DNA from: a virus
Taxonomy: Duplodnaviria; Heunggongvirae; Uroviricota; Caudoviricetes
Virus record (IMG/VR): IMGVR_UViG_3300023697_000634
Reading direction: 5' to 3' (one strand)
Length of the DNA: 64,000 nucleotides
The position numbers and the translations under genes were made by a program. A model generated the notes under the pieces. It was not told the DNA's origin and searched no databases. It was given only the letters and a program-made list of their open reading frames with translations. Below, piece by piece: positions 5,458 through 42,390 of the stretch (within the stretch, counting starts at the first letter, position 1; each line of letters starts with the position of its first letter).

Positions 5458-5475
5458 TAATAATTGGAGTGTTTA

Positions 5476-9065: not shown

Positions 9066-10046
9066 ATGAACGCTAAAAGAAAAGCTAGACTGACAGACGA
9101 ACGCAGTTACTTCAAACCATTTTCATATCCATGGGCATACGATGCTTGGTTGAAGCACGAACAGAGCCACTGGCTACACACTGAAGTACCAATGTTGGAA
9201 GATGTTAAGGACTGGAAGAAAAAGCTTACAAAAGAAGAGAAGCAATTCTTAACCCACATCTTCAGATTCTTTACACAAGGTGATATTGACGTTGCTGGTG
9301 GATATGTAAATAACTACCTACCATACTTTCCGCAACCAGAAGTCCGTATGATGTTGATGGGATTTGCTGCTCGCGAAGCCCTGCACGTTGCTGCATACTC
9401 ACATCTGATCGAGACGCTAGGTCTTCCTGAGACGACCTACAACCAATTCCTCGAATATGATGCAATGCGTGACAAGCATGAATATTTCTTGACAATTGCT
9501 GGCCAAGATGCATCTACGATCGCCCAGCAAATTGCAGCATTCTCCGCATTCACGGAAGGTATGCAGTTATTCAGTTCGTTCATCATGTTGTTGAATTTCC
9601 CACGACACGGCAAGATGAAAGGTATGGGTCAGATTGTTACGTGGTCAATCGTCGATGAAACGATGCACGCTGAATCGATGATCAAGCTGTTCCGCACATT
9701 TATCGAAGAGAACAAAGACATCTGGAATGACGATTTGAAGAGCCAGATTTATACGATTGCTGAGAAGATGGTTGCGTTGGAAGATCGCTTCATCGACTTA
9801 GCATTCGAAATGGGGCCAATGGAAGACCTCAAGGCAGAAGACGTTAAGCAGTATATTCGTTACATTTGCGACCGTCGTCTGATTAGCCTTGGTTTAAAGG
9901 GTATTAATAAAGTTAAGCGCAACCCATTACCATGGGTTGAAGAGATGATCAACGCCCCAACACATACAAACTTCTTTGAGAACCGTGCTACAGATTATGC
10001 AAAAGGCGCCACCACGGGATCATGGGAAGACGTTTGGGCAAAGTAA
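9066..10046 (+). CDS. nrdB: ribonucleoside-diphosphate reductase class I small subunit
   Basis: Ferritin-like di-iron blocks (REALHVAAYSHLIETLG, VDETMHAE). 326 aa. Confidence 0.85.
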   Translation: MNAKRKARLTDERSYFKPFSYPWAYDAWLKHEQSHWLHTEVPMLEDVKDWKKKLTKEEKQFLTHIFRFFTQGDIDVAGGYVNNYLPYFPQPEVRMMLMGFAAREALHVAAYSHLIETLGLPETTYNQFLEYDAMRDKHEYFLTIAGQDASTIAQQIAAFSAFTEGMQLFSSFIMLLNFPRHGKMKGMGQIVTWSIVDETMHAESMIKLFRTFIEENKDIWNDDLKSQIYTIAEKMVALEDRFIDLAFEMGPMEDLKAEDVKQYIRYICDRRLISLGLKGINKVKRNPLPWVEEMINAPTHTNFFENRATDYAKGATTGSWEDVWAK

Positions 10047-10306: not shown

Positions 10307-10780
10307 ATGATCAAAAAGCTCGTAACTGCGGGTCTTTTTGTTATGGCTTCATCCCTTGCGATGGGTCAGAGCGACCCTATCGTGACTGACTCGACATCGA
10401 GAAGTACGACTACTTCTATCACGGAGACGACCGTTAAGTCTCCTCCTCCAACTGCCGTCGCACCTGCTATCACTGTAATTAACAGCGACGTGTGTGCAGT
10501 TGCTGCATCTGGTGCTGTTCAGACGCAGATCCTTGGTATCTCCATGGGTGGTACAATGACGGACTATAACTGCGAACGTATCAAATTGGCACGGGGCGTC
10601 TATGATATGGGCATGAAGGTGGCTGCTGTTGCTATCATGTGCCAAGATGAGCGTGTATTCTCAGCTATGATGAATGCTGGAACACCTTGTCCAGTTGATG
10701 GTAAGATTGGCGCTCAAGCTAAGGAAATTTGGGACGCAAACCCAGAACGCATTCCTCAGAAAATCAAGAGCACCAAATGA
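10307..10780 (+). CDS. secreted protein (signal peptide)
   Basis: MIKKLVTAGLFVMASSLAMGQS signal peptide. Thr/Ser-rich stretch and conserved Cys. Confidence 0.4.
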   Translation: MIKKLVTAGLFVMASSLAMGQSDPIVTDSTSRSTTTSITETTVKSPPPTAVAPAITVINSDVCAVAASGAVQTQILGISMGGTMTDYNCERIKLARGVYDMGMKVAAVAIMCQDERVFSAMMNAGTPCPVDGKIGAQAKEIWDANPERIPQKIKSTK

Positions 10781-13092
10781 TCAAGAGATACCTAGCAATC
10801 ACATTGTTAGGAGTCTCAAGTGTTCTTGCTCAAACGGTTCAGACTACTCCTAACCTCATTACGTCAGGTACGACACATACGTGGTCGGGAGTAACTACGG
10901 GTACAATTGGGGCAAATTACATGCCAGCTGGTAGTACGTCGGCGCCTCGTTATGAGCCTGCTACGAACAGCATTAGCTTCAGTTACGCACAGGGTACAGT
11001 ATCGCAGACAATCGCTATTAACAACGCTCTAGCTAACGTCGGTGCAGGCGTTAAAGTCAACGGGTACAATTATAGCTACGACACGCGTAATATGAACGGC
11101 GATGATCGTCAAGGCAGCATCGACACATATACCATTACTACCAAGATGACGAGTAGTGCTGGAGCTACTCTTCTTTCAACGACGCAAACATTTAATACTA
11201 AGTTTGACTGGACTACCATTAGTGGAACCCAGACGGCAACTAACCCATATGCAGTAGGGGATGTTGGTTCGCTGCAGTTCAGTGCCACTGGCAAGGATAG
11301 TGGTTTTTGGGCAGGATACTTTGGCCCTCAAATTCGTAATGTTAATATGAGTCTGAACTATGGTGTGGATCCGTGCGCAACGAACCCAGCATATAGCCCA
11401 TCATGTGCCAACTACGGTACCGTGCAATATAGTAGCAACCTAGTTTCTAATCCTACTGGATATGCTGTGTTTGGTGCCTCGATTGATCAGACATATGCTA
11501 TCAATCAAGCACTCGGTCAGGCAGGCGCAGGCGCAACCATCCATGGCTTCCAGTGGGGATACACAGCAAACGCAAATGGTCCATATTGTGCATCGTGGTT
11601 TCTTTTTTGTCTCGACGAACGCACACCTAGCGTCACCACAAACGTGAACATTACAAGCAGTGCTGGAGCAAGTTTGTATAGTGTGGCACGCACATATACA
11701 AACAGTTACAACACAACGAGCTATCAATACCTCTTCCCAACAAGCCGAGCTATCAGTACACTAGGCAACTTTAATTTTACAGCAAGTACTAATGATGCTG
11801 CATATGTTGGTGATATGTGGAGCAAAGCTGTGTATACGCCAGACCCTTGCTCCGTCGATCCTTTAAGTAGCCAAAGCTGCCCAGGGTATACAGCTGCGTA
11901 TACGACACAACAATGTACTATCAGTGCGCTATACAATACAGCATGCCCCGGGTATACAGTTGCATACTTCAACCAGCAGTGTACTAACAACCCACTATAC
12001 AACCAATCATGCTCAGGATATGCATCTGCATACTTAGTACAGCAGTGTTCTATTAATCCTTTATACAGCACGACGTGTGCTGGGTACGAGACTGCATATT
12101 TCAATCAGCAATGCTCGTCGAATCCTCTATACAGCACTAGATGTAGTGGGTATTCGACTGCTTATCACGACCAGCAATGTTCACTTAATCCGCTATATGC
12201 ATCAGATTGTAATGGGTATACACAAGCATACCACGATCAGCAATGTTCACTGAATGCATTATACGCTCCTGACTGTCCTGGTTATGCGGCCGCATATAAA
12301 ACACAGCAATGCTCGGCAAATGCATTATACGCGACGGATTGCCCTGGTTACGACCAAGCATATCTCAATTCTCAATGTATTAGAGACTCACTCTATAGCC
12401 CGCTGTGCGAAGGGTATAAAACTGCATATGCAATTAAGTATCTAACGAATCTCAATCCAGCCGTAACGACTGCTGTCAATCAGCAGTTGACTGATAACGT
12501 CGAGGCTGCTAAAGCAGCACAAACGATGACGGTCGCTGACCCAGTAAGTAGTGCCACTACTAATACACCAAGCTCTACAACGTCTGCTGCGTCCGTATCA
12601 CCGACAGCTACAATTTCGACAATCAAACCTGCTCCATCAGCCGCATCTCCTACTGGCGTTGTTGCTCAAGCCGACCCAAAAAAGGAAGACAAAAAGTCTG
12701 ACGACAAACCGCAAGGTGGTCCACAGGGAGGAGAGCAGAAGGCAGAAGGTCCGAAACCGAAAACTGCTAGAGAAGAGATTGCTGCCAAGCGCGAAGAGGC
12801 TGCAAAGAAAGAAGCTGTGGCAAAGGGTAAGGACCTAGCTAATCAGATGGGCCAAGCAGCCGATCTTGAATCACAGAAGGCAATTCAAAACGTAGTTATT
12901 CAGGCAATGGGGTTCACGCCTGGGTTTGATCAGTATGGTAGAGGTGTAGTTCCAGACGCGCAGTTCTATCGTCCATTTAGCGTCTATGGTGGTCAGAAAA
13001 ATATTGATAATCGTACAGGTCTCCGGATGTTTGGAGGCAGTGATAGAGTGCATGAAGAAATGATCGATTCACAATATCAAATAGGAAAATAA
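10777..13092 (+). CDS. large secreted repeat protein with about 11 tandem Cys-containing 20-aa repeats
   Basis: Start at MIKRYLAITLLGVSSVLAQT (ATGA overlap with the upstream stop). Repeats of consensus QQC-x-NPLY-xxx-C-x-GY-xx-AY-xx. A Thr/Ser/Pro linker, a K/E-rich charged segment and a C-terminal globular region follow. Confidence 0.55.
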   Translation: MIKRYLAITLLGVSSVLAQTVQTTPNLITSGTTHTWSGVTTGTIGANYMPAGSTSAPRYEPATNSISFSYAQGTVSQTIAINNALANVGAGVKVNGYNYSYDTRNMNGDDRQGSIDTYTITTKMTSSAGATLLSTTQTFNTKFDWTTISGTQTATNPYAVGDVGSLQFSATGKDSGFWAGYFGPQIRNVNMSLNYGVDPCATNPAYSPSCANYGTVQYSSNLVSNPTGYAVFGASIDQTYAINQALGQAGAGATIHGFQWGYTANANGPYCASWFLFCLDERTPSVTTNVNITSSAGASLYSVARTYTNSYNTTSYQYLFPTSRAISTLGNFNFTASTNDAAYVGDMWSKAVYTPDPCSVDPLSSQSCPGYTAAYTTQQCTISALYNTACPGYTVAYFNQQCTNNPLYNQSCSGYASAYLVQQCSINPLYSTTCAGYETAYFNQQCSSNPLYSTRCSGYSTAYHDQQCSLNPLYASDCNGYTQAYHDQQCSLNALYAPDCPGYAAAYKTQQCSANALYATDCPGYDQAYLNSQCIRDSLYSPLCEGYKTAYAIKYLTNLNPAVTTAVNQQLTDNVEAAKAAQTMTVADPVSSATTNTPSSTTSAASVSPTATISTIKPAPSAASPTGVVAQADPKKEDKKSDDKPQGGPQGGEQKAEGPKPKTAREEIAAKREEAAKKEAVAKGKDLANQMGQAADLESQKAIQNVVIQAMGFTPGFDQYGRGVVPDAQFYRPFSVYGGQKNIDNRTGLRMFGGSDRVHEEMIDSQYQIGK
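11858..12420 (+). repeat. tandem ~60-nt coding repeats (about 11 copies) inside the repeat-protein gene
   Basis: Protein-level periodicity ...CPGYTAAYTTQQCTISALYNTACPGYTVAYFNQQCTNNPLYNQSCSGYASAYLVQQC... . The nucleotide copies are diverged but in register. Confidence 0.6.
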
Positions 13093-28749: not shown

Positions 28750-29769
28750 ATGTCAAAAAAATACGACACTCTCGTCCTCATCGGACGCTTTCAACCATTC
28801 CATAACGCTCACCTTGAGATCATCAAGCGTAGCACTGCGCTCTGTAATAAACTGATTGTTATTACAGGCAGCGCAAAACAACCTCGCACATACAAGAATC
28901 CGTTCACTAGCTTTGAACGTGAGATAATGATCAAGCGTGCAACTGCAGGTCTCGCGTTGACTATCAATGTCGTCGAAAACATCGACACAATCTACAACGA
29001 CCAAGCGTGGGCCGTTCGCATCCAATCGATCGTGAATACTCTAGCATGCGATGGGGATAAGATCGGCATCATCGGTCACAAGAAAGATGACAGCTCATTT
29101 TACTTGGATATGTTCCCACAATGGGGATATGAGAACGTCGAAGAGATCACACCACTGAGTGCTGTCAACATTCGCGACCTGTACTTCAAGCGCAACTGTA
29201 ATCTCGAATTCATTCGCGGTGTGGTACCTCAAACCACTTTCGAAATCTTGCTGGACTTCAAGCAAAGCGAAGAGTATGAACAGATCATCCGCGAGCGTGA
29301 GTTTGTAGAGAACTACAAGAAGCAGTATGCATCACTCCCATATCCTCCAATCTTCAGTACTGCTGATGCTGTGGTGATCCAATCTGGTCACGTGCTAATG
29401 ATTCGTCGTCGGGCTGAGCCTGGTAAGGGTTTGTGGGCGCTTCCTGGCGGATACGTCAATGCAAACACCGATAAGAGCGTTGAGGCTGCAATGCTCCGTG
29501 AGCTCCGTGAAGAGACAAAGATCAAAGTTCCTGAGCCAGTCCTACGCGGCAACATCGTCCGCAGCAAGGTGTTCGATGCCGTCGATCGTAGTCCTCGTGG
29601 CCGCATCATCACTCATGCATTCCACATTCAGTTGCCAGATGGCGAACTACCAAAGGTCAAAGGATCTGATGATGCTGAAAAGGCACGTTGGGTTCCAATT
29701 GCTGAAGTGAAGAGCGAAGACTGCTTCGAAGACCACTTTGAAATTCTCCAACACTTCTTGGGAGCTTAA
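28750..29769 (+). CDS. natV: bifunctional NMN adenylyltransferase / Nudix hydrolase (NadM-Nudix, NatV-like)
   Basis: N-terminal LVLIGRFQPFHNAHLEII (archaeal-type NMNAT). C-terminal Nudix box GGYVNANTDKSVEAAMLRELREETKI. Confidence 0.8.
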   Translation: MSKKYDTLVLIGRFQPFHNAHLEIIKRSTALCNKLIVITGSAKQPRTYKNPFTSFEREIMIKRATAGLALTINVVENIDTIYNDQAWAVRIQSIVNTLACDGDKIGIIGHKKDDSSFYLDMFPQWGYENVEEITPLSAVNIRDLYFKRNCNLEFIRGVVPQTTFEILLDFKQSEEYEQIIREREFVENYKKQYASLPYPPIFSTADAVVIQSGHVLMIRRRAEPGKGLWALPGGYVNANTDKSVEAAMLRELREETKIKVPEPVLRGNIVRSKVFDAVDRSPRGRIITHAFHIQLPDGELPKVKGSDDAEKARWVPIAEVKSEDCFEDHFEILQHFLGA

Positions 29770-30089: not shown

Positions 30090-30284
30090 ATGGTACGAAT
30101 TATCGATGCAACACCACACCAGAGTGTGGTCAAGAAGAAAGTCTGCCGTCACTGTGGCGTGACGTTGGAGTATGTTCCCAATGACATTCAAGAACGACGA
30201 GTTACTGATTATGATGGCAGTAGCGAACTGTTCAAGTACATCGAATGTCCTGCTTGTAAAACACACGTTGATGTGAGGTACTAA
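30090..30284 (+). CDS. zinc-ribbon protein
   Basis: CRHCGVT ... CPACKTH. Confidence 0.35.
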   Translation: MVRIIDATPHQSVVKKKVCRHCGVTLEYVPNDIQERRVTDYDGSSELFKYIECPACKTHVDVRY

Positions 30285-30285
30285 T

Positions 30286-31230
30286 ATGTGGAAAAATGTA
30301 AACGTCTTTGAAGATGAAAAAGAGCACGTTAAGAAGTATGTTTTCGAGAAAGACGATATCGCTATCGAGTCCGTTCTTTATCGTTATCCTACTTACGATG
30401 AACGCACTGTTCTCTGTATTAGTACCATGTGCGGATGCCCAATGGGTTGTCGCTTCTGTGGAACTGGTGATTATTTTGTTCGTAGTCTTACTGCGGATGA
30501 AATTGTAGGCCAAGCTGAATACATTCTCGAAACTCAAATCGGTGGTCTGAATCCTCGCGACATCAAGAAGCTGCAGATCATGGTGATGAGCATGGGCGAA
30601 CCTGCTTTGAACAAAGCTCTGGAAGAAGCATTTGATCGTTTATATGCAAAGTACCCAAATGCAGCACTGCTGATCAGCTCAAGCGGTCCTAAGGTTAGCT
30701 ACCAATGGATTATCGAAATGAGCAAACGGATTCCGACTGTCGGTTTGCAATTCAGCATTCACGAGAGTACAGACGAAGCACGCGACAAGTTGATTCCATT
30801 TGATAAGAAGTTGAACCTGCAAGAGATTGCTGATGTTGGCGTTCGCTGGCACTTGGATACTGGCCGTAAGCCATATTTCAATTACTGTGCTCACGAAGGT
30901 AATGACAAGATCGAAGACGTCCAACGACTACTCAAGTTGTACCACCCACGTATCTGGGAAGCGACTGTCTCTGTCATTTGCGAGCGTGATGCGCATGCTG
31001 AAGCAACGAACGACAAGCAACGCAACTTGGCTATTGAATTTGGTAACAAGCTGCTTGCCGAAGGATACAACGTCCGTGTGTTCGATCCAGCTGGTCAGGA
31101 TACAATCGGTGGTGGTTGTGGCCAGTTGTGGTATGTTCAAGACTGGATGAAGGATCATCCTGAGCATGTCAAGCCATCTGTTGGTTGTGGTATGCAAAAG
31201 GTCCATACACCAAAAGAATGGAACGTATGA
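30286..31230 (+). CDS. radical SAM methyltransferase, RlmN/Cfr family (lacks N-terminal accessory domain)
   Basis: LCISTMCGCPMGCRFCGTG (Cx3Cx2C), IMVMSMGEPALN (compare MMGMGEPLLN), ISSSGP, and a C-terminal GGGCGQLWYV (compare AACGQL). Both RlmN catalytic cysteines are conserved. Confidence 0.75.
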   Translation: MWKNVNVFEDEKEHVKKYVFEKDDIAIESVLYRYPTYDERTVLCISTMCGCPMGCRFCGTGDYFVRSLTADEIVGQAEYILETQIGGLNPRDIKKLQIMVMSMGEPALNKALEEAFDRLYAKYPNAALLISSSGPKVSYQWIIEMSKRIPTVGLQFSIHESTDEARDKLIPFDKKLNLQEIADVGVRWHLDTGRKPYFNYCAHEGNDKIEDVQRLLKLYHPRIWEATVSVICERDAHAEATNDKQRNLAIEFGNKLLAEGYNVRVFDPAGQDTIGGGCGQLWYVQDWMKDHPEHVKPSVGCGMQKVHTPKEWNV

Positions 31231-32018
31231 AGTTTTTGATCCAATACAATCTAATGGCAGAGTCACAACTCGAAGCAGTTAAGTCTGCAGCTCTGCCATA
31301 TCCTCACCAGTATGTTGGTGTGATTCCGTTTTCAAATGAGATCACAACAGCAGAAGGTGAAGAGATTGTTGGTACTGATTACATTCCATATGGGTCGACT
31401 CTGATGTCGACGATTGGTTTAGATTTGGGATGGAAGGGATTGTACTTCGATCTTGAGCAGTTCAATTACGAAGCTGCGGTCGCTAATCGGGATGATATGC
31501 TGAATGATGGTGCTATTATGACAGTCGAAGAGACTATCGACTTCATGCGCGCCAGCACTCAAGAACAATGGTTCATCCGTCCTTCGCTCGATCTGAAGCA
31601 TTTTGCTGGGCAGGTAATTGAACGCATAGAGTGTGTGAAGTGGTTAACACAAGCACTCAGTTGTTCATCATCTGAGACGAAACGGATGTACAAAGACATG
31701 AAGATTGTCGTTGCAACACCACAAAACATTCAAGCCGAGTGGCGTTGGTTTGTGGTCGGAGGCAAAGTGGTTGATGGGTCAATGTACCGCTCACATGGTC
31801 AATTGATCAAACAGCATGAGACTGATCCAAAAGTAATCGCTGAAGCACAAACGTTCGCCGACAAGTGGTCGCCAAACCGAAACGTCGTGATGGACTTGGC
31901 ACTTGTTGATAATGAATTGAAGGTAATTGAATTCAACTGTATCAACTGCAGTGGGTTCTACAATCACAATGTTCGTAAAATATTTGATGCACTGTATATG
32001 GAGAGTACAAAATGCTAA
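31227..32018 (+). CDS. ATP-grasp fold protein
   Basis: FIRPSLDLKHFAGQVI, EWRWFVVGGKVV and VMDLALVDNELKVIEFN resemble the ATP-grasp (RimK/GshB-like) strands. Start at MKFLIQ (ATGA overlap). Confidence 0.5.
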   Translation: MKFLIQYNLMAESQLEAVKSAALPYPHQYVGVIPFSNEITTAEGEEIVGTDYIPYGSTLMSTIGLDLGWKGLYFDLEQFNYEAAVANRDDMLNDGAIMTVEETIDFMRASTQEQWFIRPSLDLKHFAGQVIERIECVKWLTQALSCSSSETKRMYKDMKIVVATPQNIQAEWRWFVVGGKVVDGSMYRSHGQLIKQHETDPKVIAEAQTFADKWSPNRNVVMDLALVDNELKVIEFNCINCSGFYNHNVRKIFDALYMESTKC

Positions 32019-32491
32019 AGCATGTAAAAGGTAACTTACTCGATCTAGCTGAGGCTGGTCATTTTGATGTGGTCGTTCAAGGCTGCAATTGCTTCAACGC
32101 AATGGGTGGAGGGATCGCACGTGAGATTCGTGAACGCTATCCTCACGTTGCTAAGGTAGACTCTAATACTGTCCGCGGCGCATACAATAAACTAGGCAAC
32201 TGGACAAACGAACTGGTCATTCTCAAGAACGGCACAGTTTGCTTCGATGTCATTAATGCATACACTCAATACAACATGAGTACTGGTCAAGATGTATTTG
32301 AATATGCAGCGTTCGAATTAATTCTCCAAAAGCTACTATACACATATGGGGACAAGCGGATCGGATTTCCATTCATCGGTATGGGTCTTGCCCGTGGCGA
32401 TAAACAACGAATCATCGGACTGCTTGAATGGTTCGCTGATGAAATCGAGAAGCGTGGCGGTAGTGCGACGCTAGTGGAATTTCAACCATGA
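32012..32491 (+). CDS. Macro domain protein (ADP-ribose binding / hydrolase)
   Basis: KGNLLDLAEAGHFDVVVQGCNCFNAMGGGIAREI, the canonical Macro block. Confidence 0.75.
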   Translation: MLKHVKGNLLDLAEAGHFDVVVQGCNCFNAMGGGIAREIRERYPHVAKVDSNTVRGAYNKLGNWTNELVILKNGTVCFDVINAYTQYNMSTGQDVFEYAAFELILQKLLYTYGDKRIGFPFIGMGLARGDKQRIIGLLEWFADEIEKRGGSATLVEFQP

Positions 32492-33059: not shown

Positions 33060-34457
33060 ATGAAACTGAGCAAAAATATCTTATTGAACACAGACAGCTA
33101 CAAAGTGTCAATGTGGAAGCAATACCCTGTTGGAACAACTGGCGTATTTTCTTACATCGAATCGCGTGGCGGTCGATACGATCAAACAGTGATGTTTGGT
33201 CTGCAAGCGTTCATCAAGGAGTACTTACTTGACCCCATTACACAGTCCGACATCGATATCGCCGAAGAGATTCTTCTCGCACACGGAGAGCCATTTAATC
33301 GTAGCGGCTGGCAGTATATCCTCGACAAGCACGACGGATATCTCCCCGTCATCATCCGAGCAGTCCCCGAGGGTACTGTGGTACCGGTTAAGAATGTCCT
33401 CGCAACCATCGAGAACACAGATCCCAACGTACCGTGGCTGACTACATGGCTCGAGACTCCTTTGCTTCGTGCAATTTGGTATCCAACTACTGTGGCAACA
33501 CAGAGCTGGTCGATTCGCAAAGTGATTTTGGATTATTTGGAGAAGACTGGTGACCCTGCTCTTATCGATTTTAAGTTACACGACTTTGGTGCTCGCGGTG
33601 TTAGTTCCCTTGAGTCCGCTGGCATTGGCGGCGCCGCGCACCTCGTTAATTTCATGGGTACCGATACTGTTACCGGTTTGTTGTATGCTCGTGAGTATTA
33701 CAACGCTGGTATTAGTGGGTTTTCAATTCCTGCAGCCGAACACAGCACAATCACAAGCTGGGGTCGTGAAGGAGAAGTCGATGCCTACCGAAACATGCTT
33801 ACAAATTTCGCTCGGCCCGGGTCCATTGTTGCAGTCGTTTCCGACAGCTACGATGTATTCAATGCCGCTAGCAAATTGTGGGGAGAAGAGCTCCGTCAGC
33901 AAGTGATTGATAGCGGTGCTACTGTCGTGATTCGTCCTGATAGTGGTGACCCTGTTGAAGTTAACCGCAAGTTGATTGAGATCTTAGGAGAAAAGTTTGG
34001 ATACACTACAAACGCCAAAGGATTCAAAGTCCTCAATAATGTTCGCCTCATCCAGGGGGACGGTGTCAATGAGTTATCCATCCGCAGTATCCTTGGGGCA
34101 CTCATGGCAATGGGATGGTCAGCAGATAACATTGCATTCGGTATGGGCGGTGCCTTGCTCCAGCAAGTCGACCGAGATACCCAGAAGTTCGCAATGAAGT
34201 GTTCTTCTGCCAAGATTAATGACGTATGGGTCGATGTACAAAAAGATCCAATCACTGATAGTGGTAAGAAGTCGAAGGCAGGCCGAGTTACTCTTTGGAA
34301 GAGTGGCGGCGAATGGATCAGTAGCGTCGAAAAGCCAGCTGGCTGGCACGACAAGGCAACTGGTGAGTTCGTCGAAGTACTGGAAACAGTATACGCTAAC
34401 GGAAAGTTGATTAACGAATATACATTCGACAACATCCGAGCAAGAGCTCGCAAATAA
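33060..34457 (+). CDS. nadV: nicotinamide phosphoribosyltransferase (Nampt, NadV-like)
   Basis: 465 aa. NAPRTase-family core, with blocks DSYD and RPDSGDP. Strong RBS AAGGAGATTAACATG. Confidence 0.8.
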   Translation: MKLSKNILLNTDSYKVSMWKQYPVGTTGVFSYIESRGGRYDQTVMFGLQAFIKEYLLDPITQSDIDIAEEILLAHGEPFNRSGWQYILDKHDGYLPVIIRAVPEGTVVPVKNVLATIENTDPNVPWLTTWLETPLLRAIWYPTTVATQSWSIRKVILDYLEKTGDPALIDFKLHDFGARGVSSLESAGIGGAAHLVNFMGTDTVTGLLYAREYYNAGISGFSIPAAEHSTITSWGREGEVDAYRNMLTNFARPGSIVAVVSDSYDVFNAASKLWGEELRQQVIDSGATVVIRPDSGDPVEVNRKLIEILGEKFGYTTNAKGFKVLNNVRLIQGDGVNELSIRSILGALMAMGWSADNIAFGMGGALLQQVDRDTQKFAMKCSSAKINDVWVDVQKDPITDSGKKSKAGRVTLWKSGGEWISSVEKPAGWHDKATGEFVEVLETVYANGKLINEYTFDNIRARARK

Positions 34458-34994: not shown

Positions 34995-35189
34995 ATGGAA
35001 TACACATTAGTAATTTGGACAGTCGTTGCTGCGTTCGGTACAGGAGCTGGCACATACAAGCCGCAAGAGTATCGCGATTGGCGACCGATAGCCGTTTTCA
35101 ATAATGGTGGTGCTCAATCGTTGCATCATTGTCACGCAGCTGCTGAACAATTGAAGCTGCAAAAATTTGAATGTATCAGAACCAAGTGA
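34995..35189 (+). CDS. hypothetical protein
   Basis: ORF of 64 aa. Confidence 0.3.
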   Translation: MEYTLVIWTVVAAFGTGAGTYKPQEYRDWRPIAVFNNGGAQSLHHCHAAAEQLKLQKFECIRTK

Positions 35190-35199
35190 AGGAAAGAAA

Positions 35200-36237
35200 A
35201 TGCGTAAACTTGCATCCATTCGTCGCATTGACGAACTGAACCCTATTGAGGGTGCCGACAAAATTGAAGTGGCCACTGTTGGTGGTTGGAAGGTCGTGTG
35301 CCAAAAAGGTCTCTACGTGGTTGGCGATCTTGCTGTATACTTTGAAATCGATTCGTTTATCCCAACGGCCGTCGCTCCGTTCCTAACAAAGGAAGGTCAC
35401 TATCCGAAGGTGTTTGAAAGAGTCGAGGGCGAACGTTTGAAGACAATCAAGCTGCGTGGCCAGTTGTCTCAAGGTTTGCTGATTCCGTTGAAAGAGATTG
35501 TGCCACTCTTCCCTGATAGCGAGTTCGATGAAGGTCAGGAGCTGATGGAGTTCTTCCGAGAAGATGCCGACATGACTGAATTTCTCGGTATCCTGAAATG
35601 GGAGAAGGCAATTCCTGCTCAGCTCGCTGGTATTTCTCGTGGCAACTTTCCAACTTTGATTCCAAAGACTGACCAAGAGCGTGTGCAAAACTTGAAGAAA
35701 GAGATTGCTGCTGCTCAAGGACAAGTATACGAAGTAACGGAGAAGCTGGAAGGCTCTTCGATGACTTGCTATGTGATTGATGGTGAGTTCGGAGTGTGCT
35801 CCCGTAACCTCAACCTCAAGGAAACTGAGGGCAACTCATTCTGGATTGCAGCTCGCGACAATGACCTTGAGCAAAAGATGCTTGCTCGTCAGTATGACTT
35901 CGCAATCCAAGGTGAGTTGATTGGTCCTGGAGTTCAAGGTAACATCTACAAATTGACAAAGCCTGAGTTCTATGTGTTTGACATCTATGATGTTAAGGAC
36001 GGCGAGTATATGAATCCAGCTGCACGTCGCCAACTGGTCGAGTCTCTTGGCCTGAAGCATGTGCCGATTCTGGACGATATGTATGTCCTTAACGATGATG
36101 TAGAACAACTGTTGACATTGGCTGAAGGCAAGTCTAGAATGTTTGATACGGAACGAGAAGGCATCGTGTTCAAACAGAATGACGGTGGCATGACGTTCAA
36201 AGCGATCTCGAACAAGTACCTATTGAACGAGAAGTGA
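35200..36237 (+). CDS. RNA ligase, Rnl5/DRB0094-like family
   Basis: N-terminal OB-like module, EKLEGSS (KxxG nucleotidyltransferase motif I candidate) and C-terminal FKAISNKYL. RBS AAGGAAAG. Confidence 0.55.
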   Translation: MRKLASIRRIDELNPIEGADKIEVATVGGWKVVCQKGLYVVGDLAVYFEIDSFIPTAVAPFLTKEGHYPKVFERVEGERLKTIKLRGQLSQGLLIPLKEIVPLFPDSEFDEGQELMEFFREDADMTEFLGILKWEKAIPAQLAGISRGNFPTLIPKTDQERVQNLKKEIAAAQGQVYEVTEKLEGSSMTCYVIDGEFGVCSRNLNLKETEGNSFWIAARDNDLEQKMLARQYDFAIQGELIGPGVQGNIYKLTKPEFYVFDIYDVKDGEYMNPAARRQLVESLGLKHVPILDDMYVLNDDVEQLLTLAEGKSRMFDTEREGIVFKQNDGGMTFKAISNKYLLNEK

Positions 36238-36256
36238 TTTAAGTTTTCTCCCCTTT

Positions 36257-36282
36257 GCGCCGGCTTGACCGGCGTTCTTTTT
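36257..36282 (+). terminator. Rho-independent terminator
   Basis: CGCCGG-CTTGA-CCGGCG followed by TTCTTTTT. Confidence 0.5.
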
Positions 36283-36636
36283 ATGAACAATCCACTAATA
36301 TTCATCACAGATATGCTCGCTGCAGCAAAGAAGTCCTATCAGGCTGCTGTGGAAGAGCGCAAGAAGAGAGAGCATAACGCTGAGCGTAAGCGGATCGCCA
36401 AGCACTTCAACAACTACTACACATACCGCCACCGTTTCGACACATCAAGCGACGAACGGCTGGACGGAACAGGGATGTGGGGCTTCACGCCAAAAAAAGG
36501 AAATGCGTGGATGTGTCCAACGTGCAATAAGATCCACTTGGCATCGAGCTGTAGTGCATTTTCCGGTCTGCAGTATCCACATTGCTGTGAGTATAGATCA
36601 CACCACAGGCTATACAACGACATCAGAACGCAATGA
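36283..36636 (+). CDS. Cys/His-cluster (zinc-binding) protein
   Basis: CPTCNKIH ... C ... HCC. Start at the ATG after the terminator (the track start at 36265 is a TTG). Confidence 0.35.
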   Translation: MNNPLIFITDMLAAAKKSYQAAVEERKKREHNAERKRIAKHFNNYYTYRHRFDTSSDERLDGTGMWGFTPKKGNAWMCPTCNKIHLASSCSAFSGLQYPHCCEYRSHHRLYNDIRTQ

Positions 36637-37160
36637 CGCCGCTATCGGAACACCTCAAGCAACGACACTTGGACATCGATCTCCACCGTCCAGTGATAGA
36701 CGAGGTGGATAGAATTGCTACGTTCTATTTGTGGAACCTTAGTGGTGCGCTGGTGGGGTTCCAACAATATCGTCCAGAGGGCGAAAAGAAGATCAACAAT
36801 AACCCCAAAGAAGGCAAGTACTACACCTATAAGAAGCAACCTACGATTGCTGTATGGGGCGTAGAATCGCTTTACCTTTCCTCGCACGTTGTGTTTATTA
36901 CGGAAGGTGTGTTTGACGCTGCTAGGCTAACTGAACGAGGATATAGCGCGCTAGCAATGCTGACGAACAATCCAACTGCAGATTATCGTAACTGGTTGAC
37001 GTTCTTGAATAGGACTGTCGTTGCAGTATGCGACAATGATAAAGCTGGTAGGAAATTAGCAGCGTTCGGTGATGTTGTAATTTTTACCGAAGATAAAGAT
37101 CTTGGCGATAGTGATGATGAATATGTCACTAATTTGCTATTGCCATATAAACTGTACTAA
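36633..37160 (+). CDS. TOPRIM-domain protein (DnaG-core-like)
   Basis: VVFITEGVFDA (TOPRIM Glu) and VAVCDNDKAGRK (DxD). Confidence 0.5.
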   Translation: MTPLSEHLKQRHLDIDLHRPVIDEVDRIATFYLWNLSGALVGFQQYRPEGEKKINNNPKEGKYYTYKKQPTIAVWGVESLYLSSHVVFITEGVFDAARLTERGYSALAMLTNNPTADYRNWLTFLNRTVVAVCDNDKAGRKLAAFGDVVIFTEDKDLGDSDDEYVTNLLLPYKLY

Positions 37161-37174
37161 AGGATAATGTGATT

Positions 37175-37735
37175 ATGAAAACATTTATTACATCAGACAT
37201 TCACTTCGGACATAAGAACATTATGAGCTTTTGTCCAGTATCGCGTGCTCGCTTCAAGGGCGACGTGGACTATATGAACGCTCAGATCATCCAAGACTGG
37301 AATAACATGATTGGCCCAGACGACTTGGTGTACATCTTGGGTGACGTTGCATTCTGCTCATGGGAAAAGGCAGTTGGTTTCTTGCGTTCGATGAATGGTC
37401 GCAAGATTTTGATCAAGGGCAACCATGACAGCAAGCTCGTTAAGAGTCCAGAGTTCGTTGCCTGCTTCGAAAGCATTCACGACTACTTGACAATTACATA
37501 TAACGGTACTCGGGTATCGATGTTCCACTACCCGATCGCTGAGTGGGATCAGATGCACCGAGGTGCTGTCCACTTCTACGGTCACTTGCATGGTGGCACT
37601 AGCGGATTGGAAAAGTACCGAGCAATCGATGTTGGTATGGATGGCAATATGTGCTACCCACATGACATGGATGTTGCTGTGGCAATGGCATTGAAGGGCG
37701 ACATCAAAAAGCACCACGACAAATATGGGAACTAA
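37175..37735 (+). CDS. calcineurin-like metallophosphoesterase
   Basis: ITSDIHFGH, ILGDVAF, GNHD and GHLHGG metal-ligand blocks. ATG after AAGGA (the track start is a GTG). Confidence 0.7.
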   Translation: MKTFITSDIHFGHKNIMSFCPVSRARFKGDVDYMNAQIIQDWNNMIGPDDLVYILGDVAFCSWEKAVGFLRSMNGRKILIKGNHDSKLVKSPEFVACFESIHDYLTITYNGTRVSMFHYPIAEWDQMHRGAVHFYGHLHGGTSGLEKYRAIDVGMDGNMCYPHDMDVAVAMALKGDIKKHHDKYGN

Positions 37736-37736
37736 C

Positions 37737-38207
37737 ATGAGCAAATTGAAATGCATTCAATTGGTTGGCGTGCCTGGATCAGGAAAGTCAACATGGATCA
37801 AAACACAAACAATGATCGACAACTTCGTTGTTGCGTCTACTGATAACTTCGTTGAGCAGCATGCTGCTAAAGAAGGCAAGACGTATAATGAAGTGTTCAA
37901 GGACTACATGCCGATCGCTGTGAGGTTGATGGCAAACCAAGTGTTGATTGCGCAAGCGAACAACAAGAACATCATTTGGGATCAAACGTCAATGAGCGTT
38001 GCATCTCGTAAGAAGAAGTTCAACACAATTCCCAACTACGAACACATCGCTGTTGTGTTCCCCGTTCCTGGTGAGGAAGAGTTGGCACGTCGGTTGGCAA
38101 GCCGTCCAGGAAAGTTGATTCCAGATCATGTTATGAAAAGCATGATTGACAGCTTCGAGATGCCGACTCTTGAAGAAGGGTTCACTGAAGTTCACGTTTT
38201 GCTGTAA
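37737..38207 (+). CDS. P-loop polynucleotide kinase-like protein (T4 Pnk kinase-domain-like)
   Basis: IQLVGVPGSGKSTW (compare T4 Pnk GCPGSGKSTW). 156 aa. Confidence 0.6.
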   Translation: MSKLKCIQLVGVPGSGKSTWIKTQTMIDNFVVASTDNFVEQHAAKEGKTYNEVFKDYMPIAVRLMANQVLIAQANNKNIIWDQTSMSVASRKKKFNTIPNYEHIAVVFPVPGEEELARRLASRPGKLIPDHVMKSMIDSFEMPTLEEGFTEVHVLL

Positions 38208-38218
38208 GGAGTATCGAA

Positions 38219-38479
38219 ATGGTAGTATTTCCAAAAGAGTTCGTTGCGATTCGTTATCCAGGCTACTTCTGGCACACGGTCGAGAAGCGTTTGTACACAA
38301 TCAAAGTGTCTGGTGAACTCCGTCCATTGAAATTCTGCCGTGGTGGTACATTCTATGGCAAAACAATTGAGCCTGGTTATCGCGTAAGCGTTCAAGGTGT
38401 ACGTAAGAAAGTATCGATGTCCTATCTGGGCAGCATTGGCGACTCGTGGGTGCAACAAGAGATTCCATATGAAAGTTAA
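38219..38479 (+). CDS. hypothetical protein
   Basis: ORF of 86 aa. Confidence 0.3.
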   Translation: MVVFPKEFVAIRYPGYFWHTVEKRLYTIKVSGELRPLKFCRGGTFYGKTIEPGYRVSVQGVRKKVSMSYLGSIGDSWVQQEIPYES

Positions 38480-39356
38480 TTCAGAATCGTTAAAGAAGTT
38501 CGTTGAAGAAAATCCAAAGCTGGTCTCTCGTCGACCAGCCGGCGATGGCATTTACGTCCTGAAATACAAAAAGACTGTATTCTATGATGGTTTGTGGAAC
38601 GATTACTTAGAAGAGTGTCGTGGTATGATTGTGGATGAAGATTACAACATCGTGTCATACCCATTCACGAAGGTATACAACTATGGCGTAGAAGCGAAGT
38701 CGCCTGTGTTGGATGGCAGCACGAAGATCAAGGCATACCGTAAAGTTAATGGCTTTATGGTCGCTGTAACGTGGCATAAAGACGATATCCTTGTGTCAAC
38801 TACAGGATCGACGGACTCCGATTATGTAAAAATGGCTCGTGAGTTTATCGATCGTGATTTGGATCTATACCGTGCTTGGTGTAAGGAATATTCGACATAC
38901 ACATTCATGTTTGAGTGTGTCCATAAGGATGATCCGCACATCATTCCAGAAGTGGAAGGGATGTATTTGCTAGGACACCGTCCAAAGTTCTTTGGTTCGC
39001 CAATTGGTGTGTCTGACGACATGCACAAGGCATTCAACTGCCATTCGGTTGAAGCAATTGAGTGTACGTTAGATACACTACGTTCGTTGGCTAAGACGGT
39101 GAGGCACGAAGGGTTCGTATTCTATACGTTGGACGGCATGATAGGCTCTAAGATCAAGAGTCCACATTACCTAGTGTCTAAGTTTGTTGCTCGTAATCCA
39201 CGAACTGACAAATTGATGCGTCCAGATGTGAAGAAGTCGCTCGATGAGGAGTATTATCCATTAATCGATGCCATCCAAGCGAACATCGATGCATATACTG
39301 CTATGGACGAACAGACGCGACTATCGTGGGTGAGGGAGTTTCTTTCAGCTCAATGA
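38469..39356 (+). CDS. RNA ligase 1 (T4 RnlA-like)
   Basis: LEECRGMIVDEDYNIVSYPFTKVYNYGV ... AYRKVNGFMVAVTW parallels T4 Rnl1 LECRGIMFE ... KFFNLNE ... TKEDGSLVSTY. Start at MKVNSE. Confidence 0.6.
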   Translation: MKVNSESLKKFVEENPKLVSRRPAGDGIYVLKYKKTVFYDGLWNDYLEECRGMIVDEDYNIVSYPFTKVYNYGVEAKSPVLDGSTKIKAYRKVNGFMVAVTWHKDDILVSTTGSTDSDYVKMAREFIDRDLDLYRAWCKEYSTYTFMFECVHKDDPHIIPEVEGMYLLGHRPKFFGSPIGVSDDMHKAFNCHSVEAIECTLDTLRSLAKTVRHEGFVFYTLDGMIGSKIKSPHYLVSKFVARNPRTDKLMRPDVKKSLDEEYYPLIDAIQANIDAYTAMDEQTRLSWVREFLSAQ

Positions 39357-40094: not shown

Positions 40095-40736
40095 CTAAGG
40101 TAGTGGTAATTGTTTGTTCTTTCGGTTCTTCGATTCTTTATGAGAAACAGGAACATACGCCCATGTATGTATGGGTCCAGTTTTATCCATCGAGTCATAT
40201 TCAGTTTTCGGAATGCGACTGCTGTTTCCATCGACGTCGGTCACGCTAACTGTGCCAGATGTTTGCTTAAAGTCCCAACGGGGATGCTTAGAATGCTCAG
40301 CTCTGCGCTCAGCTGTCCAATATGCTTTATTGAAGTCGCTGTGAGCTTGTTTTCTTTGCTCATCCCACACAGGAGTAGGAGGTTCGCCGCGCAGCACTTT
40401 ATTTGCAAGTATGCCGCCAGAATCTATACCTTTCCGCCCATATCGTAGAATATAATATTCTTCTCTATTATATGCTAGTCGTTCATCGTCGATATCAGAC
40501 TCAAGTTCTACAATACGCGGCTCATTCCCAGCAGCACATAAATTGCGTATCTTCAGATGCTTGTCTACATTATCAGTAGTTTCGATGGTTTCTCGTAGAT
40601 GCTTGAATTTCCGGTCACCCCTACCCTTTCCGATGTAAAATGGTAGGTCGGTATTCGGATCGATGTAAGCGTATATGTAGTACATGCCTTTATTTATAAA
40701 ACACCAATCTTCAAGGTAGGTGTGTTTATAGTGCAA
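40095..40736 (-). CDS. GIY-YIG homing endonuclease
   Basis: MYYIYAYIDPNTDLPFYIGKGRGDR. The true start may be the internal Met at 40685. Confidence 0.55.
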   Translation of the reverse strand: MHYKHTYLEDWCFINKGMYYIYAYIDPNTDLPFYIGKGRGDRKFKHLRETIETTDNVDKHLKIRNLCAAGNEPRIVELESDIDDERLAYNREEYYILRYGRKGIDSGGILANKVLRGEPPTPVWDEQRKQAHSDFNKAYWTAERRAEHSKHPRWDFKQTSGTVSVTDVDGNSSRIPKTEYDSMDKTGPIHTWAYVPVSHKESKNRKNKQLPLP

Positions 40737-42390
40737 TCTGCGACACAGTCATAATTACAGACGGAATTGCAGGACAGAAGGCAGTTGCTGCAGGAGCCGT
40801 TATGAACGCTCCAAGGTCACTGACAGCCCACATAAGCTCAAAGTAATCGTTGGTGTTCATCGATACTTGGAAGTTCCAAGATGGAACCTTATACTCTTCG
40901 TTACCTGTAATGGTGAGTCTCGATGCTGTGTTGGGAATATCAGCGCCATTCTTTCTCGCCCATATGTATATTTCCTTTTTAGATGCTGTTTGCGAGGTAA
41001 CTTGCAATGAAAACTTATAGTCGTAGAATCCAGACGCTTCTGCTACTATTCTCGTTTCATTGATGATGTGGTGTCCATTAGAGATGTCAGGAGTGCGCAT
41101 CTTCACAGCATATGGAGTGTTTATTACGGCTGCTGTCTGGCTGAGTACATCTAAGAAAGTTCCATAATACAAACGTGGATATATCGTTGGGCGAACCAGT
41201 AATATACCATCCCCACTACCTACATGGAGTACAGCAGCAATGCTTACTACTATATTTGGTGCATATGGTTTGACCTTTGTTAGTTTGCCAGCCATAGTCG
41301 GGTGGACGTAGAGCAAGTCGCCCTTTACCCACACCTCTCCAACGCTCGAGCCAGTCGTATCCATATCATGGACTTTACCGTTCCATGTAGCACGACCAGT
41401 GGTATTGTTTGGTAAATCGTTTGTCAATACGCCAACAGTATACAATCCATGCACAGTACCGTTAGCGATGTGTGGGACTACGATCGGTTCGTGTGCATTA
41501 GCTTCATATACGCCAGCAAACCTAACAACAGTACCATTAGGCATAGTATTACCGCTCTCGTTGCGGACGCGTATGTAGTGCTCCAGACCTGTTTGTAATG
41601 TGGATCCATCAGCGTGGTGAATGTCCAAACAATCCTCATCAGGATTCCAAGCAACTTGACCTGCAACAAGACTGACGTCTGGTCCTATAGTATTGTATCT
41701 TGTTGTCTTGATTGGTCCTATATCTTCGGTGAACTGTACTTTCTTAGTCGCAGCGTCATATTCCAATACCCAGTTATCATTTGTGGTATTCATTGTGCCA
41801 CGATTAACATCATCGAGATAGCGGAATAGTACCTCACCGCCGCCAGGGCCAGCCATGCTGATCTTGCTTACCCAGCCTTCAAGCAACTTTAACTTGTTTT
41901 GGATTGCCTGGATGTCTCTTCCTGTAGCAGCGGGTTCTGGTTGTATGAACATCGAAGGTGCAGTTGTGTCTGTCAGTCTCTTTGCTGCCGCTGCTGCTAG
42001 CGTTGAGGTTTCTGGTGGAGCTAGTATAGCTGACTTCTCGACCAACTCATCGAACTGTTGATCCTCAACCACTTCTTCAGTTATAGTCACTTGTCGATCA
42101 TCGGATTCCGGCTTTATGGATTCAATATGTTCTAGGACATTAGTGAAGCGGTCGAGCAGTGCCTGCTCTTCTTCTGTTTTCTTCTTGTCTTCTGCGACGA
42201 GCTTATTGATGTCCTTAGCGAGGTCTGTGAACAGCGATTTGAACGCATTCTTACGTTCTTCTTGCATTGCAAGCTGTCTATCCTCTTTCAGCTGCTCTGC
42301 AGCGATTTGGTCATAGATTGACTGCTCAGTTTGTACACCGAGCTTTTCATTCATCTTGACTATTAATCGTAATTCTTTTAGCTTATTCAT
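40726..42390 (-). CDS. large coiled-coil plus beta-rich protein (structural or fibre-like candidate)
   Basis: 554 aa. N-terminal 170 aa are charged coiled coil, and the remainder is Gly/Thr/Asn-rich with beta-strand character. Shares a divergent promoter region with 42466. Confidence 0.45.
   Translation of the reverse strand: MNKLKELRLIVKMNEKLGVQTEQSIYDQIAAEQLKEDRQLAMQEERKNAFKSLFTDLAKDINKLVAEDKKKTEEEQALLDRFTNVLEHIESIKPESDDRQVTITEEVVEDQQFDELVEKSAILAPPETSTLAAAAAKRLTDTTAPSMFIQPEPAATGRDIQAIQNKLKLLEGWVSKISMAGPGGGEVLFRYLDDVNRGTMNTTNDNWVLEYDAATKKVQFTEDIGPIKTTRYNTIGPDVSLVAGQVAWNPDEDCLDIHHADGSTLQTGLEHYIRVRNESGNTMPNGTVVRFAGVYEANAHEPIVVPHIANGTVHGLYTVGVLTNDLPNNTTGRATWNGKVHDMDTTGSSVGEVWVKGDLLYVHPTMAGKLTKVKPYAPNIVVSIAAVLHVGSGDGILLVRPTIYPRLYYGTFLDVLSQTAAVINTPYAVKMRTPDISNGHHIINETRIVAEASGFYDYKFSLQVTSQTASKKEIYIWARKNGADIPNTASRLTITGNEEYKVPSWNFQVSMNTNDYFELMWAVSDLGAFITAPAATAFCPAIPSVIMTVSQIAL

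Follow-up and report, generated by a model that had tools for sequence, protein, structure and literature searches.

A phage clade of probable class A radical SAM methylases without the N-terminal RNA-docking domain recurs in NAD+ reconstitution operons

We analyzed a stretch of 64,000 nucleotides (hereafter, the window) from the IMG/VR virus record IMGVR_UViG_3300023697_000634 (Caudoviricetes). The window is part of a 237,764-bp contig that corresponds to a T4-like phage with a primase, ribonucleotide reductase, tail-fiber-like proteins, and both DNA and RNA ligases. The subject of this work is one open reading frame (ORF) on its plus strand (30286 to 31230), which has an ATG start and a TGA stop and codes for a protein of 314 amino acids resembling RlmN and Cfr, the radical S-adenosylmethionine (SAM) enzymes that methylate RNA adenosines. 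All coordinates are positions in the window, and residue numbers are those of the 314-residue phage protein unless another enzyme is named. The clade to which this protein belongs shows a recurrent same-strand adjacency to genes of nicotinamide adenine dinucleotide (NAD+) synthesis, and this operonic link to NAD+ reconstitution has not been reported before.

A first interpretation made from the letters of the window alone (here, the sequence-only reading) had assigned the protein to the RlmN/Cfr family, and profile, PDB sequence, and fold searches bore out this membership at the superfamily level. The sole Pfam match was Radical_SAM (PF04055), with 35.1 bits against a gathering cutoff of 29.5. 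Among the NCBIfam models, the top eight matches were all RlmN or Cfr, including the RlmN model TIGR00048 (E = 3e-29, covering profile positions 71 to 342 of 355) and three Cfr models (E of ca. 1e-25), while all other radical SAM models scored worse than E = 0.006. Searching the PDB with the single sequence retrieved Cfr (9p0p, 4e-22) as the best match and RlmN (3rf9) at 8e-16, and with a profile of 15 family members the values were 3e-42 for 6fz6, 6e-40 for Cfr, and 2.5e-34 for E. coli RlmN. An AlphaFold2 (AF2) prediction from the single sequence, with a predicted local distance difference test (pLDDT) score of 47, was set aside, and the model used was built with a 46-sequence alignment (pLDDT of 95.2 and predicted template modeling score of 0.92). 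When this model was compared to the PDB with Foldseek, chains of RlmN or Cfr occupied the first 11 places (5e-19 to 8e-14), ahead of SkfB at 4e-7; every significant match was a radical SAM enzyme, and the fold is the partial (beta/alpha)6 TIM barrel of these proteins. QueE, PflA-like proteins, viperin, and the SPASM subfamilies were ruled out by the score gaps in both NCBIfam and Foldseek. Neither of the two outcomes set beforehand as contrary evidence, placement in another radical SAM subfamily or a C-terminal cysteine out of register with RlmN C355, was observed.

The motifs expected of the family (LCIS, CGCPMGCRFC, MGEPALN, SSSGP, and GGGCGQL), already listed in the sequence-only reading, were all found in the ORF and their coordinates verified. 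In the family-profile alignments, C44, the cysteine of LCIS, fell on RlmN C118 and Cfr C105, and C278, in the GGGCGQL loop, on RlmN C355 and Cfr C338; thus, the retained cysteine and the methyl-carrying cysteine were both where they had been anticipated. The GGGCGQL loop, with its C278, was invariant in the 47 of 47 sequences compared. Of 21 family members, all had C278 and 19 had C44; in the remaining two, the cysteine was at the +1 position. Within the beta extension, E28 (RlmN E105) was also kept and invariant in the alignment. With the two extra cysteines in register, the beta extension, the CGQL loop, and RlmN and Cfr as its nearest relatives, the protein has the features of a class A radical SAM methylase, and we consider it very probable that it is a catalytically competent enzyme of this type.

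The two-SAM methyl-cysteine mechanism has been established for RlmN and Cfr. By analogy, in the phage enzyme one SAM molecule would methylate C278, and a second one would be cleaved at the [4Fe-4S] cluster held by C51, C55, and C58 to give a 5'-deoxyadenosyl radical that takes a hydrogen from methyl-C278. Next, the methylene radical would add to one of the sp2 carbons in a ring of the substrate (in adenine, C2 or C8, if the analogy holds), and C44 would resolve the covalent enzyme-substrate adduct. Judging from the conserved apparatus, C-methylation of adenine is the most likely chemistry.

What the phage protein lacks is the HhH2 N-terminal RNA-docking domain. The alignments begin at position 71 of the RlmN profile and at residue 67 to 70 of Cfr, so that ca. 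65 to 70 N-terminal residues are absent, and there is no room for them in the phage gene because the preceding ORF ends at 30284, 1 nucleotide before the ATG. The window was also translated in all six frames and searched with a profile of cellular N-terminal domains, which detected no similar sequence (best E = 0.67). The alignment start and this search together confirmed the loss of the ca. 70 residues present in cellular RlmN and Cfr that the sequence-only reading had noticed. A split gene with the domain encoded separately was ruled out, as the window contains no such ORF and the three small ORFs upstream are unrelated. The long N-terminal extensions that appear at some homologous loci were high-GC read-through and not real domains. 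In Cfr, the N-terminal domain comprises ca. residues 1 to 58, followed by a hinge (59 to 65), and anchors helices H91 and H92 of the 23S rRNA, while the beta extension links it to the core and also packs against the adenosine that is the target. RlmN, for its part, requires the whole tRNA shape and does not accept a 17-nucleotide anticodon stem-loop by itself.

The core that remains has also diverged from those of RlmN and Cfr. Scores were far below the ortholog cutoffs for RlmN (102 bits versus 290 for TIGR00048 and 69 versus 633 for PRK11194) and for Cfr (ca. 91 bits versus 468 to 550 for TIGR04432 and NF000424), and by this measure the phage protein is an ortholog of neither. In a rough neighbor-joining tree, computed without support values, RlmN and Cfr shared a clade, and the phage family and its sister group, which consists of short proteins, fell outside it. 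To compare the substrate sites, we took the RNA contacts of Cfr from one 2026 cryo-EM preprint, mapping them by sequence alignment and not by coordinate superposition, and the residues that discriminate RlmN from Cfr from a 2026 crystal-structure paper; the cellular comparison set was small (eight full-length homologs plus segments of E. coli RlmN and Staphylococcus aureus Cfr, ca. 10 sequences). In the phage family, RlmN T116 (Cfr S103) is replaced by V42, the RR motif R206-R207 of RlmN by A126-A127, T209 (Cfr S187) by L129, N307 (Cfr N288) by T227, and R344 (Cfr R327) by F266. These positions were conserved in the cellular sample, and the replacements, mostly hydrophobic, were conserved within the phage family. 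In Cfr, the phosphate 3' of the target adenosine is held by S103, S151, S153, and S187, helix H90 by R184 and R185, and the target sugar-phosphate by R327 and N288.

The phage pocket has conserved residues specific to the family (Q155, F266, V42, and L129). Four of the nine basic positions conserved in the cellular cores are lost, and the median net charge of the core is -5 in the phage family versus +2 in the cellular proteins, with overlapping distributions that separate the two groups weakly. On the other hand, the family has kept E28, R40 (RlmN R114), Y34 (Cfr Y97), and the GRK stretch at 193 to 195, which corresponds to Cfr R249/K250, the residues in contact with the RNA U-turn. Among the residues associated with resistance and C8 specificity in Cfr (Y97, W101, S103, S151, Q329, and F330), the Y97 equivalent (Y34) alone is present. 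As the signatures of RlmN and of Cfr are both missing from the protein, C2 or C8 regiospecificity cannot be predicted from its sequence. A Cfr-like resistance phenotype is not expected either, because the N-terminal domain, the resistance residues, and the equivalents of R184/R185 are absent and the Cfr score is low. Taken from the alignments, the way in which the substrate docks is predicted to be unlike that of 23S rRNA or tRNA in RlmN and Cfr.

In the window, the radical SAM gene lies inside a tightly packed run of genes, all on one strand, that extends from a bifunctional NMNAT-Nudix gene to NAMPT (Table 1). These two genes make up the NARP2 pathway, which counters NAD-depleting defenses. 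Start and stop codons overlap at the junctions between the radical SAM and R2K ATP-grasp genes, R2K and macro, and macro and the nucleoside 2-deoxyribosyltransferase-like (NDT-like) gene. ATP-grasp proteins of the R2K clade are predicted protein modifiers, and the macro-domain gene may, by analogy, code for an Adpp-type ADP-ribose-1''-phosphate phosphatase. The NDT-like PF15891 gene recurs near the radical SAM gene in several lineages. Three small ORFs separate NMNAT-Nudix from the radical SAM gene, the last of which codes for a protein of 64 amino acids with four cysteines. This small ORF adjoins the radical SAM gene in the lineage of the window and in one other, and lies 2.8 to 3.6 kb away at two loci (L011 and L012); speculatively, its product might assist the enzyme as a partner in docking or in electron transfer. 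Directly downstream of the NAD cluster, 4 to 8 kb from the radical SAM gene, there is a set of genes resembling an RNA-repair system (35167 to 39356). No tRNA genes or Rfam families were detected within the 64-kb window, and a scan for promoters and terminators performed no better than on shuffled sequence.

Table 1. Features of the radical SAM gene and of its neighborhood in the window
Feature	Position	Strand	Basis
Bifunctional NMNAT-Nudix, NARP2 core	28750-29769	+	Pfam CTP_transf_like and NUDIX
64-amino-acid four-Cys ORF, zinc-ribbon or rubredoxin-like	30090-30284	+	CRHCG...CPACK, two CxxC knuckles
Probable class A radical SAM methylase gene, RlmN/Cfr superfamily, no N-terminal domain	30286-31230	+	ORF, profiles, AF2 model, Foldseek
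Beta-sheet extension, residues ca. 4-34, three strands	30295-30387	+	AF2 model strands E4-10, E15-21, E26-34
C44 codon (RlmN C118/Cfr C105, resolving Cys)	30415-30417	+	Alignment
CX3CX2C (C51, C55, C58; CPMGCRFC), [4Fe-4S] binding	30436-30459	+	Invariant in alignment
MGEPALN motif	30592-30612	+	Sequence
SSSGP motif	residues 131-135	+	Sequence
GGGCGQL loop with C278 (RlmN C355/Cfr C338, methyl-carrying Cys)	31108-31128	+	Alignment
R2K-clade ATP-grasp	31227-32018	+	Pfam R2K_3 6.6e-21; ATG overlaps radical SAM stop (ATGA)
Macro-domain gene	32012-32491	+	Weak Pfam Macro; PHROG 335 "phosphatase" 4.7e-34
NDT-like, PF15891	32488-32985	+	Pfam 5e-35
NAMPT (nicotinamide phosphoribosyltransferase), NARP2 core	33060-34457	+	Pfam NAMPT_N and NAPRTase
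RNA ligase with PHA02142 OB domain	35167-36237	+	
Metallophosphoesterase	37169-37735	+	
AAA_33 P-loop kinase	37725-38207	+	
T4 Rnl1-type ligase	38397-39356	+	

Elsewhere in the window, two large ORFs, of 787 amino acids (10729 to 13092, plus strand) and 554 amino acids (40726 to 42390, minus strand), had no match in Pfam or PHROG. An ORF of 377 amino acids (7913 to 9046, plus strand) matched the C-terminal regions of tail fibers, an odd position for such a gene since it sits between those of the large (5464 to 7272) and small (9066 to 10046) ribonucleotide reductase subunits.

The genomic context was then compared across 167 loci, which were sorted by the sequence of the radical SAM protein (70% identity) into 55 lineages, 41 of them with full 5-kb flanks; all lineage counts derive from heuristic ORF calls and single-linkage clusters, without phylogenetic correction. 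A core gene of NAD+ synthesis (NAMPT/Namat, NMNAT, Adps-like, PncA-like, or NadE) was found within 500 bp of the radical SAM gene in 15 of the 55 lineages (12 of the 41 with full flanks) and within 5 kb in 19 (16 of the 41). Without exception (35 of 35), these NAD+ neighbors were on the same strand as the radical SAM gene. NAD-related families were the only neighbors that recurred across lineages; NADAR, macro, and NDT-like genes, checked with Pfam, also did so. Moreover, the gene appeared between the core pairs of three different routes, NARP2, NARP1, and PncA-like/NadE, each in a different lineage. The order varied between lineages and the adjacency stayed: the gene was located between NMNAT-Nudix and NAMPT, between Adps and Namat, after or before an Adps-Namat pair, between PncA and NadE, or between NadE and NMNAT-PncA. 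In one homolog with 42% identity (P0138), the radical SAM domain was fused to a Nudix domain, and the next genes were NAMPT and a stand-alone NMNAT. NARP1 and NARP2 together have been found in 5.4% of sequenced phage genomes, and other genes embedded in NARP operons, Adpp and RyDEP, act on ADP-ribose derivatives. We found no mention of a radical SAM gene in the NARP papers, in their supplements, or in a 2022 survey of viral NAD-ADPr systems. As a separate observation, in a gut phage contig (L113, 8084 to 8896) we noted by eye a Thg1-like (tRNA-His guanylyltransferase) gene at no more than 1.5 kb from the radical SAM gene.

Regarding its distribution, the sequence-only reading had considered a virus-encoded member of this family unusual, which proved wrong in sequence space. 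The protein database contained 5054 homologs, the 120 best of which were 69 to 91% identical and 286 to 333 amino acids long, and a library clustered at 50% identity gave 71 clusters better than 1e-30. Two scans of IMG/VR retrieved 262 and 228 viral contigs with a family member, overlapping sets that mostly ranged from 50 to 430 kb. Among cultured phages, members with 50 to 56% identity were present in Stenotrophomonas phages ANB28 and BUCTxx99, Xanthomonas phage JGB6, several Vibrio phages, Salmonella phage Arash, and Aeromonas phage Ahp1. In Vibrio phage 496E54-1 and its relatives, the gene adjoins NARP1. By contrast, only 11 loci at 44% identity or more were found in 185,579 species-representative genomes, nine of them on contigs of metagenome-assembled genomes and two on contigs of 45 to 54 kb from isolate assemblies. 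We suspect that these 11 loci are of phage or prophage origin; beyond them, identity in the species-representative genomes falls to 35% or less, the level of canonical RlmN. Going by these homologs, the clade is large and found almost only in phages, where it is common. A literature search found no published characterization of the short phage RlmN-like clade, and another for phage RlmN or Cfr found nothing relevant. The 8 kb around the gene had no megablast match in the GenBank phage collection, and the nucleotide matches of the window were metagenomic only, including a 234,864-bp IMG/VR contig.

GenBank labels of the members are inconsistent, varying among RlmN, "radical SAM protein, partial," "prohibitin family protein," and hypothetical; the prohibitin label, given to those of JGB6 (L249, 3995 to 5059) and BUCTxx99 (H2), appears to be a misannotation. 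Two distant short RlmN-like proteins had additional domains. One core (P0210; L090, 724 to 3003) was fused to HD/HD_assoc (dGTPase-like) and adjoins a DUF7768 gene on a contig with aconitase and histidinol dehydrogenase that looks cellular, and the other (P0222) had a weak receiver-like (REC) N-terminal domain. Given their distance, and the cellular appearance of the P0210 contig, no weight was given to either fusion.

Taken as a whole, the explanation that we find best, with a confidence somewhat short of even, is that of a complete class A methylase that works as an accessory of NAD+ operons on an adenosine not ordinarily embedded in RNA. The substrate would be bound in a manner unlike that of A2503 or A37, and the role tied to NAD+ counter-defense, because the docking domain and the residues that hold the RNA and the 3'-phosphate have been lost and because the gene is embedded in operons of three routes. 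The gene would thus be an accessory of the phage operons for NAD+ reconstitution and counter-defense; both the functional coupling to NAD+ and the nature of the substrate are what we infer from these data. NAD+, ADP-ribose, and their derivatives, with an adenosine whose 3'-OH is free, would fit the altered pocket, and a nucleotide of this type is our tentative proposal for the substrate. A terminal or otherwise unusual RNA adenosine would be less probable than NAD+, ADP-ribose, or an NAD-derived molecule. The sequence-only reading had already suggested, from the NAD cluster in the window, that the enzyme might act on an adenine nucleotide; comparative genomics now lends this idea clear support, with NAD/ADP-ribose-type nucleotides and RNA about equally likely as substrates.

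Several points weigh against this explanation. To our knowledge, all characterized class A radical SAM methylases act on RNA, and we know of no biological role for a C-methylated NAD. RlmN-type enzymes are slow, which makes the bulk conversion of a metabolite kinetically unattractive. The phage family has kept the beta extension, R40 (RlmN R114), and GRK 193 to 195, the U-turn contacts in Cfr, and the contact mapping itself rests on sequence alignment, the contacts of one preprint, and ca. 10 cellular sequences. In around 60 to 65% of the lineages, no NAD gene lies within 5 kb, and the lineages without NAD neighbors include tRNA arrays, RNA-ligase neighborhoods, and replication/recombination modules. 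The radical SAM-Nudix fusion, finally, is one cluster on one contig, and no recurrence was found.

The strongest alternative is that the enzyme is still an RNA adenine C-methylase, modifying C2 or C8 of an adenosine in tRNA of the host or of the phage (A37-like) or 23S rRNA (A2503-like) with the core only, possibly helped by a docking partner. It would serve to adjust translation or to shield RNA from ribotoxic defenses, for example by making a repaired tRNA resistant to a second cleavage, and the proximity to NAD genes would reflect a mere clustering of counter-defense genes. This is a real possibility, although it is not the one we prefer. The family prior is strong, RlmN and Cfr being the only characterized relatives, and the phage family has retained the beta extension along with E28, R40, and the GRK motif, which in Cfr contacts the RNA U-turn. 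In ANB28 the gene is located among tRNA genes, and at L086 (28 tRNA genes), L067, L043, and L001 it lies in or beside large tRNA arrays and not beside NAD genes; tRNA genes occur within 5 kb in 12 of the 55 lineages and RtcB or Rnl1 RNA ligases in seven. The RNA-repair set 4 to 8 kb downstream of the gene in the window points in the same direction. However, the phage protein has lost the HhH2 domain and the RR motif as well as R344 and the serine and threonine residues that bind the 3'-phosphate, RlmN cannot use a bare anticodon stem-loop, and of the six Cfr resistance residues just the equivalent of Y97 is left. The window has no tRNA gene in its 64 kb, and at distances of up to 500 bp NAD genes were found in 15 of the 55 lineages versus one for RNA ligases and two for tRNA genes. 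A simple island effect would hardly account for insertions between the core pairs of three different NAD routes. The main proposal of the sequence-only reading, that A2503 of rRNA or A37 of tRNA is the target, has lost part of its support and is still plausible.

The same fold might also serve another chemistry or target, such as radical addition to nicotinamide (pyridinium) or the modification of proteins or of ADP-ribose linked to them, or its role might be noncatalytic or regulatory; all of these we regard as improbable. The pocket has been remodeled with conserved residues of its own (Q155, F266, V42, and L129), the pyridinium ring is a good acceptor for nucleophilic carbon radicals, and the neighbors include macro and NADAR genes, which process ADP-ribose, as well as the R2K ATP-grasp. 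However, no direct evidence speaks for these options, and the strict conservation of both RlmN-type cysteines and of the G-G-G-C-G-Q-L loop that faces the adenine favors an unchanged methyl transfer. Least probable is a DNA adenine C-methylase that would place 2- or 8-methyl groups on the phage DNA against restriction: several lineages of smaller phages without NAD genes do carry the gene in an early replication/recombination module (next to exonuclease, DnaQ-like, DnaC-like, ParB-like, and helicase genes), where phage DNA methylases often sit, but a literature search for 2- or 8-methyladenine in phage DNA found none, a slow radical enzyme that spends its own methyl-cysteine in each cycle is ill suited to genome-wide marking, the embedding in NAD operons would be unexplained, and the protein has no DNA-binding domain.

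RlmN and Cfr are the only characterized radical SAM enzymes that methylate through a methyl-cysteine, and both do so on RNA. The clade described here keeps the apparatus for that chemistry without the RNA-docking parts and within NAD+ operons, which makes it a candidate for a new class of substrates and for a further step in the arms race over NAD+. It is an attractive, if somewhat unlikely, prospect that it contains the first class A radical SAM methylase acting on a small dinucleotide, by C-methylation of NAD+, ADP-ribose, or an immune signal derived from NAD, at either the adenine or the pyridinium ring. If true, the product could be an NAD+ analog that the defense NADases can neither cleave nor sense, or a disabled signal of the cyclic ADP-ribose (cADPR) type, and a layer of chemical modification would be added to the conflict between phages and bacteria over NAD+. 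If the substrate is RNA instead, the clade would represent phage RNA C-methylases with a different mode of recognition, and it would matter in practice that they lack a resistance signature like that of Cfr. Since cultured phages carry the gene, the question of the substrate can be tested directly.

Compared to known systems, the phage protein shares with E. coli RlmN (the C2-methyltransferase of 23S A2503 and tRNA A37; PDB 3RFA and 5HR7) the radical SAM core fold and the beta extension, together with the CX3CX2C motif, E105 (E28), R114 (R40), C118 (C44), C355 (C278), and the xxCGQL loop, and the same two-SAM ping-pong mechanism would be expected for it. It differs in the absence of the HhH2 domain, in an identity of just ca. 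21 to 26%, in the change of T116, R206, R207, T209, N307, and R344 to V, A, A, L, T, and F, and in the location of the gene in NAD+ operons, whereas RlmN is found in a housekeeping locus. With Cfr (the C8-methyltransferase of 23S A2503 that makes cells resistant to phenicols, lincosamides, oxazolidinones, pleuromutilins, and streptogramin A; PDB 9P0P plus cryo-EM), its best single-sequence match in the PDB (4e-22), it shares both cysteines, Y97 (Y34), R249/K250 (R194/K195), and Y252 (Y197), but it has neither the domain that anchors H91/H92 nor W101, S103, S151, Q329, F330, and the H90-binding R184/R185.

In terms of context, the closest parallels are Adpp, a macro-domain ADP-ribose-1''-phosphate phosphatase, and RyDEP, a RyR-domain cADPR glycosidase, which are also extra genes on the same strand in or beside the NARP operons of a subset of phages. 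These are hydrolases of unrelated fold and chemistry with demonstrated ADP-ribose-derived substrates, whereas the radical SAM protein is a predicted methylase and its gene is also found without NAD genes nearby. The homologs of ANB28 (XMQ95057.1), Vibrio phage 496E54-1 (CAH9014187.1), and Ahp1 (QIW86905.1) belong to the same clade, with 50 to 56% identity, the same length, and both cysteines; they carry automatic annotation only, and no study of them was found in a literature search. The short RlmN-like form of Pseudomonas phage 201phi2-1 (B3FJU2) is far more distant than the members of the clade. In the light of these comparisons, made at the level of sequence, the clade is one of uncharacterized class A radical SAM methylases without the N-terminal domain and with a remodeled substrate site.

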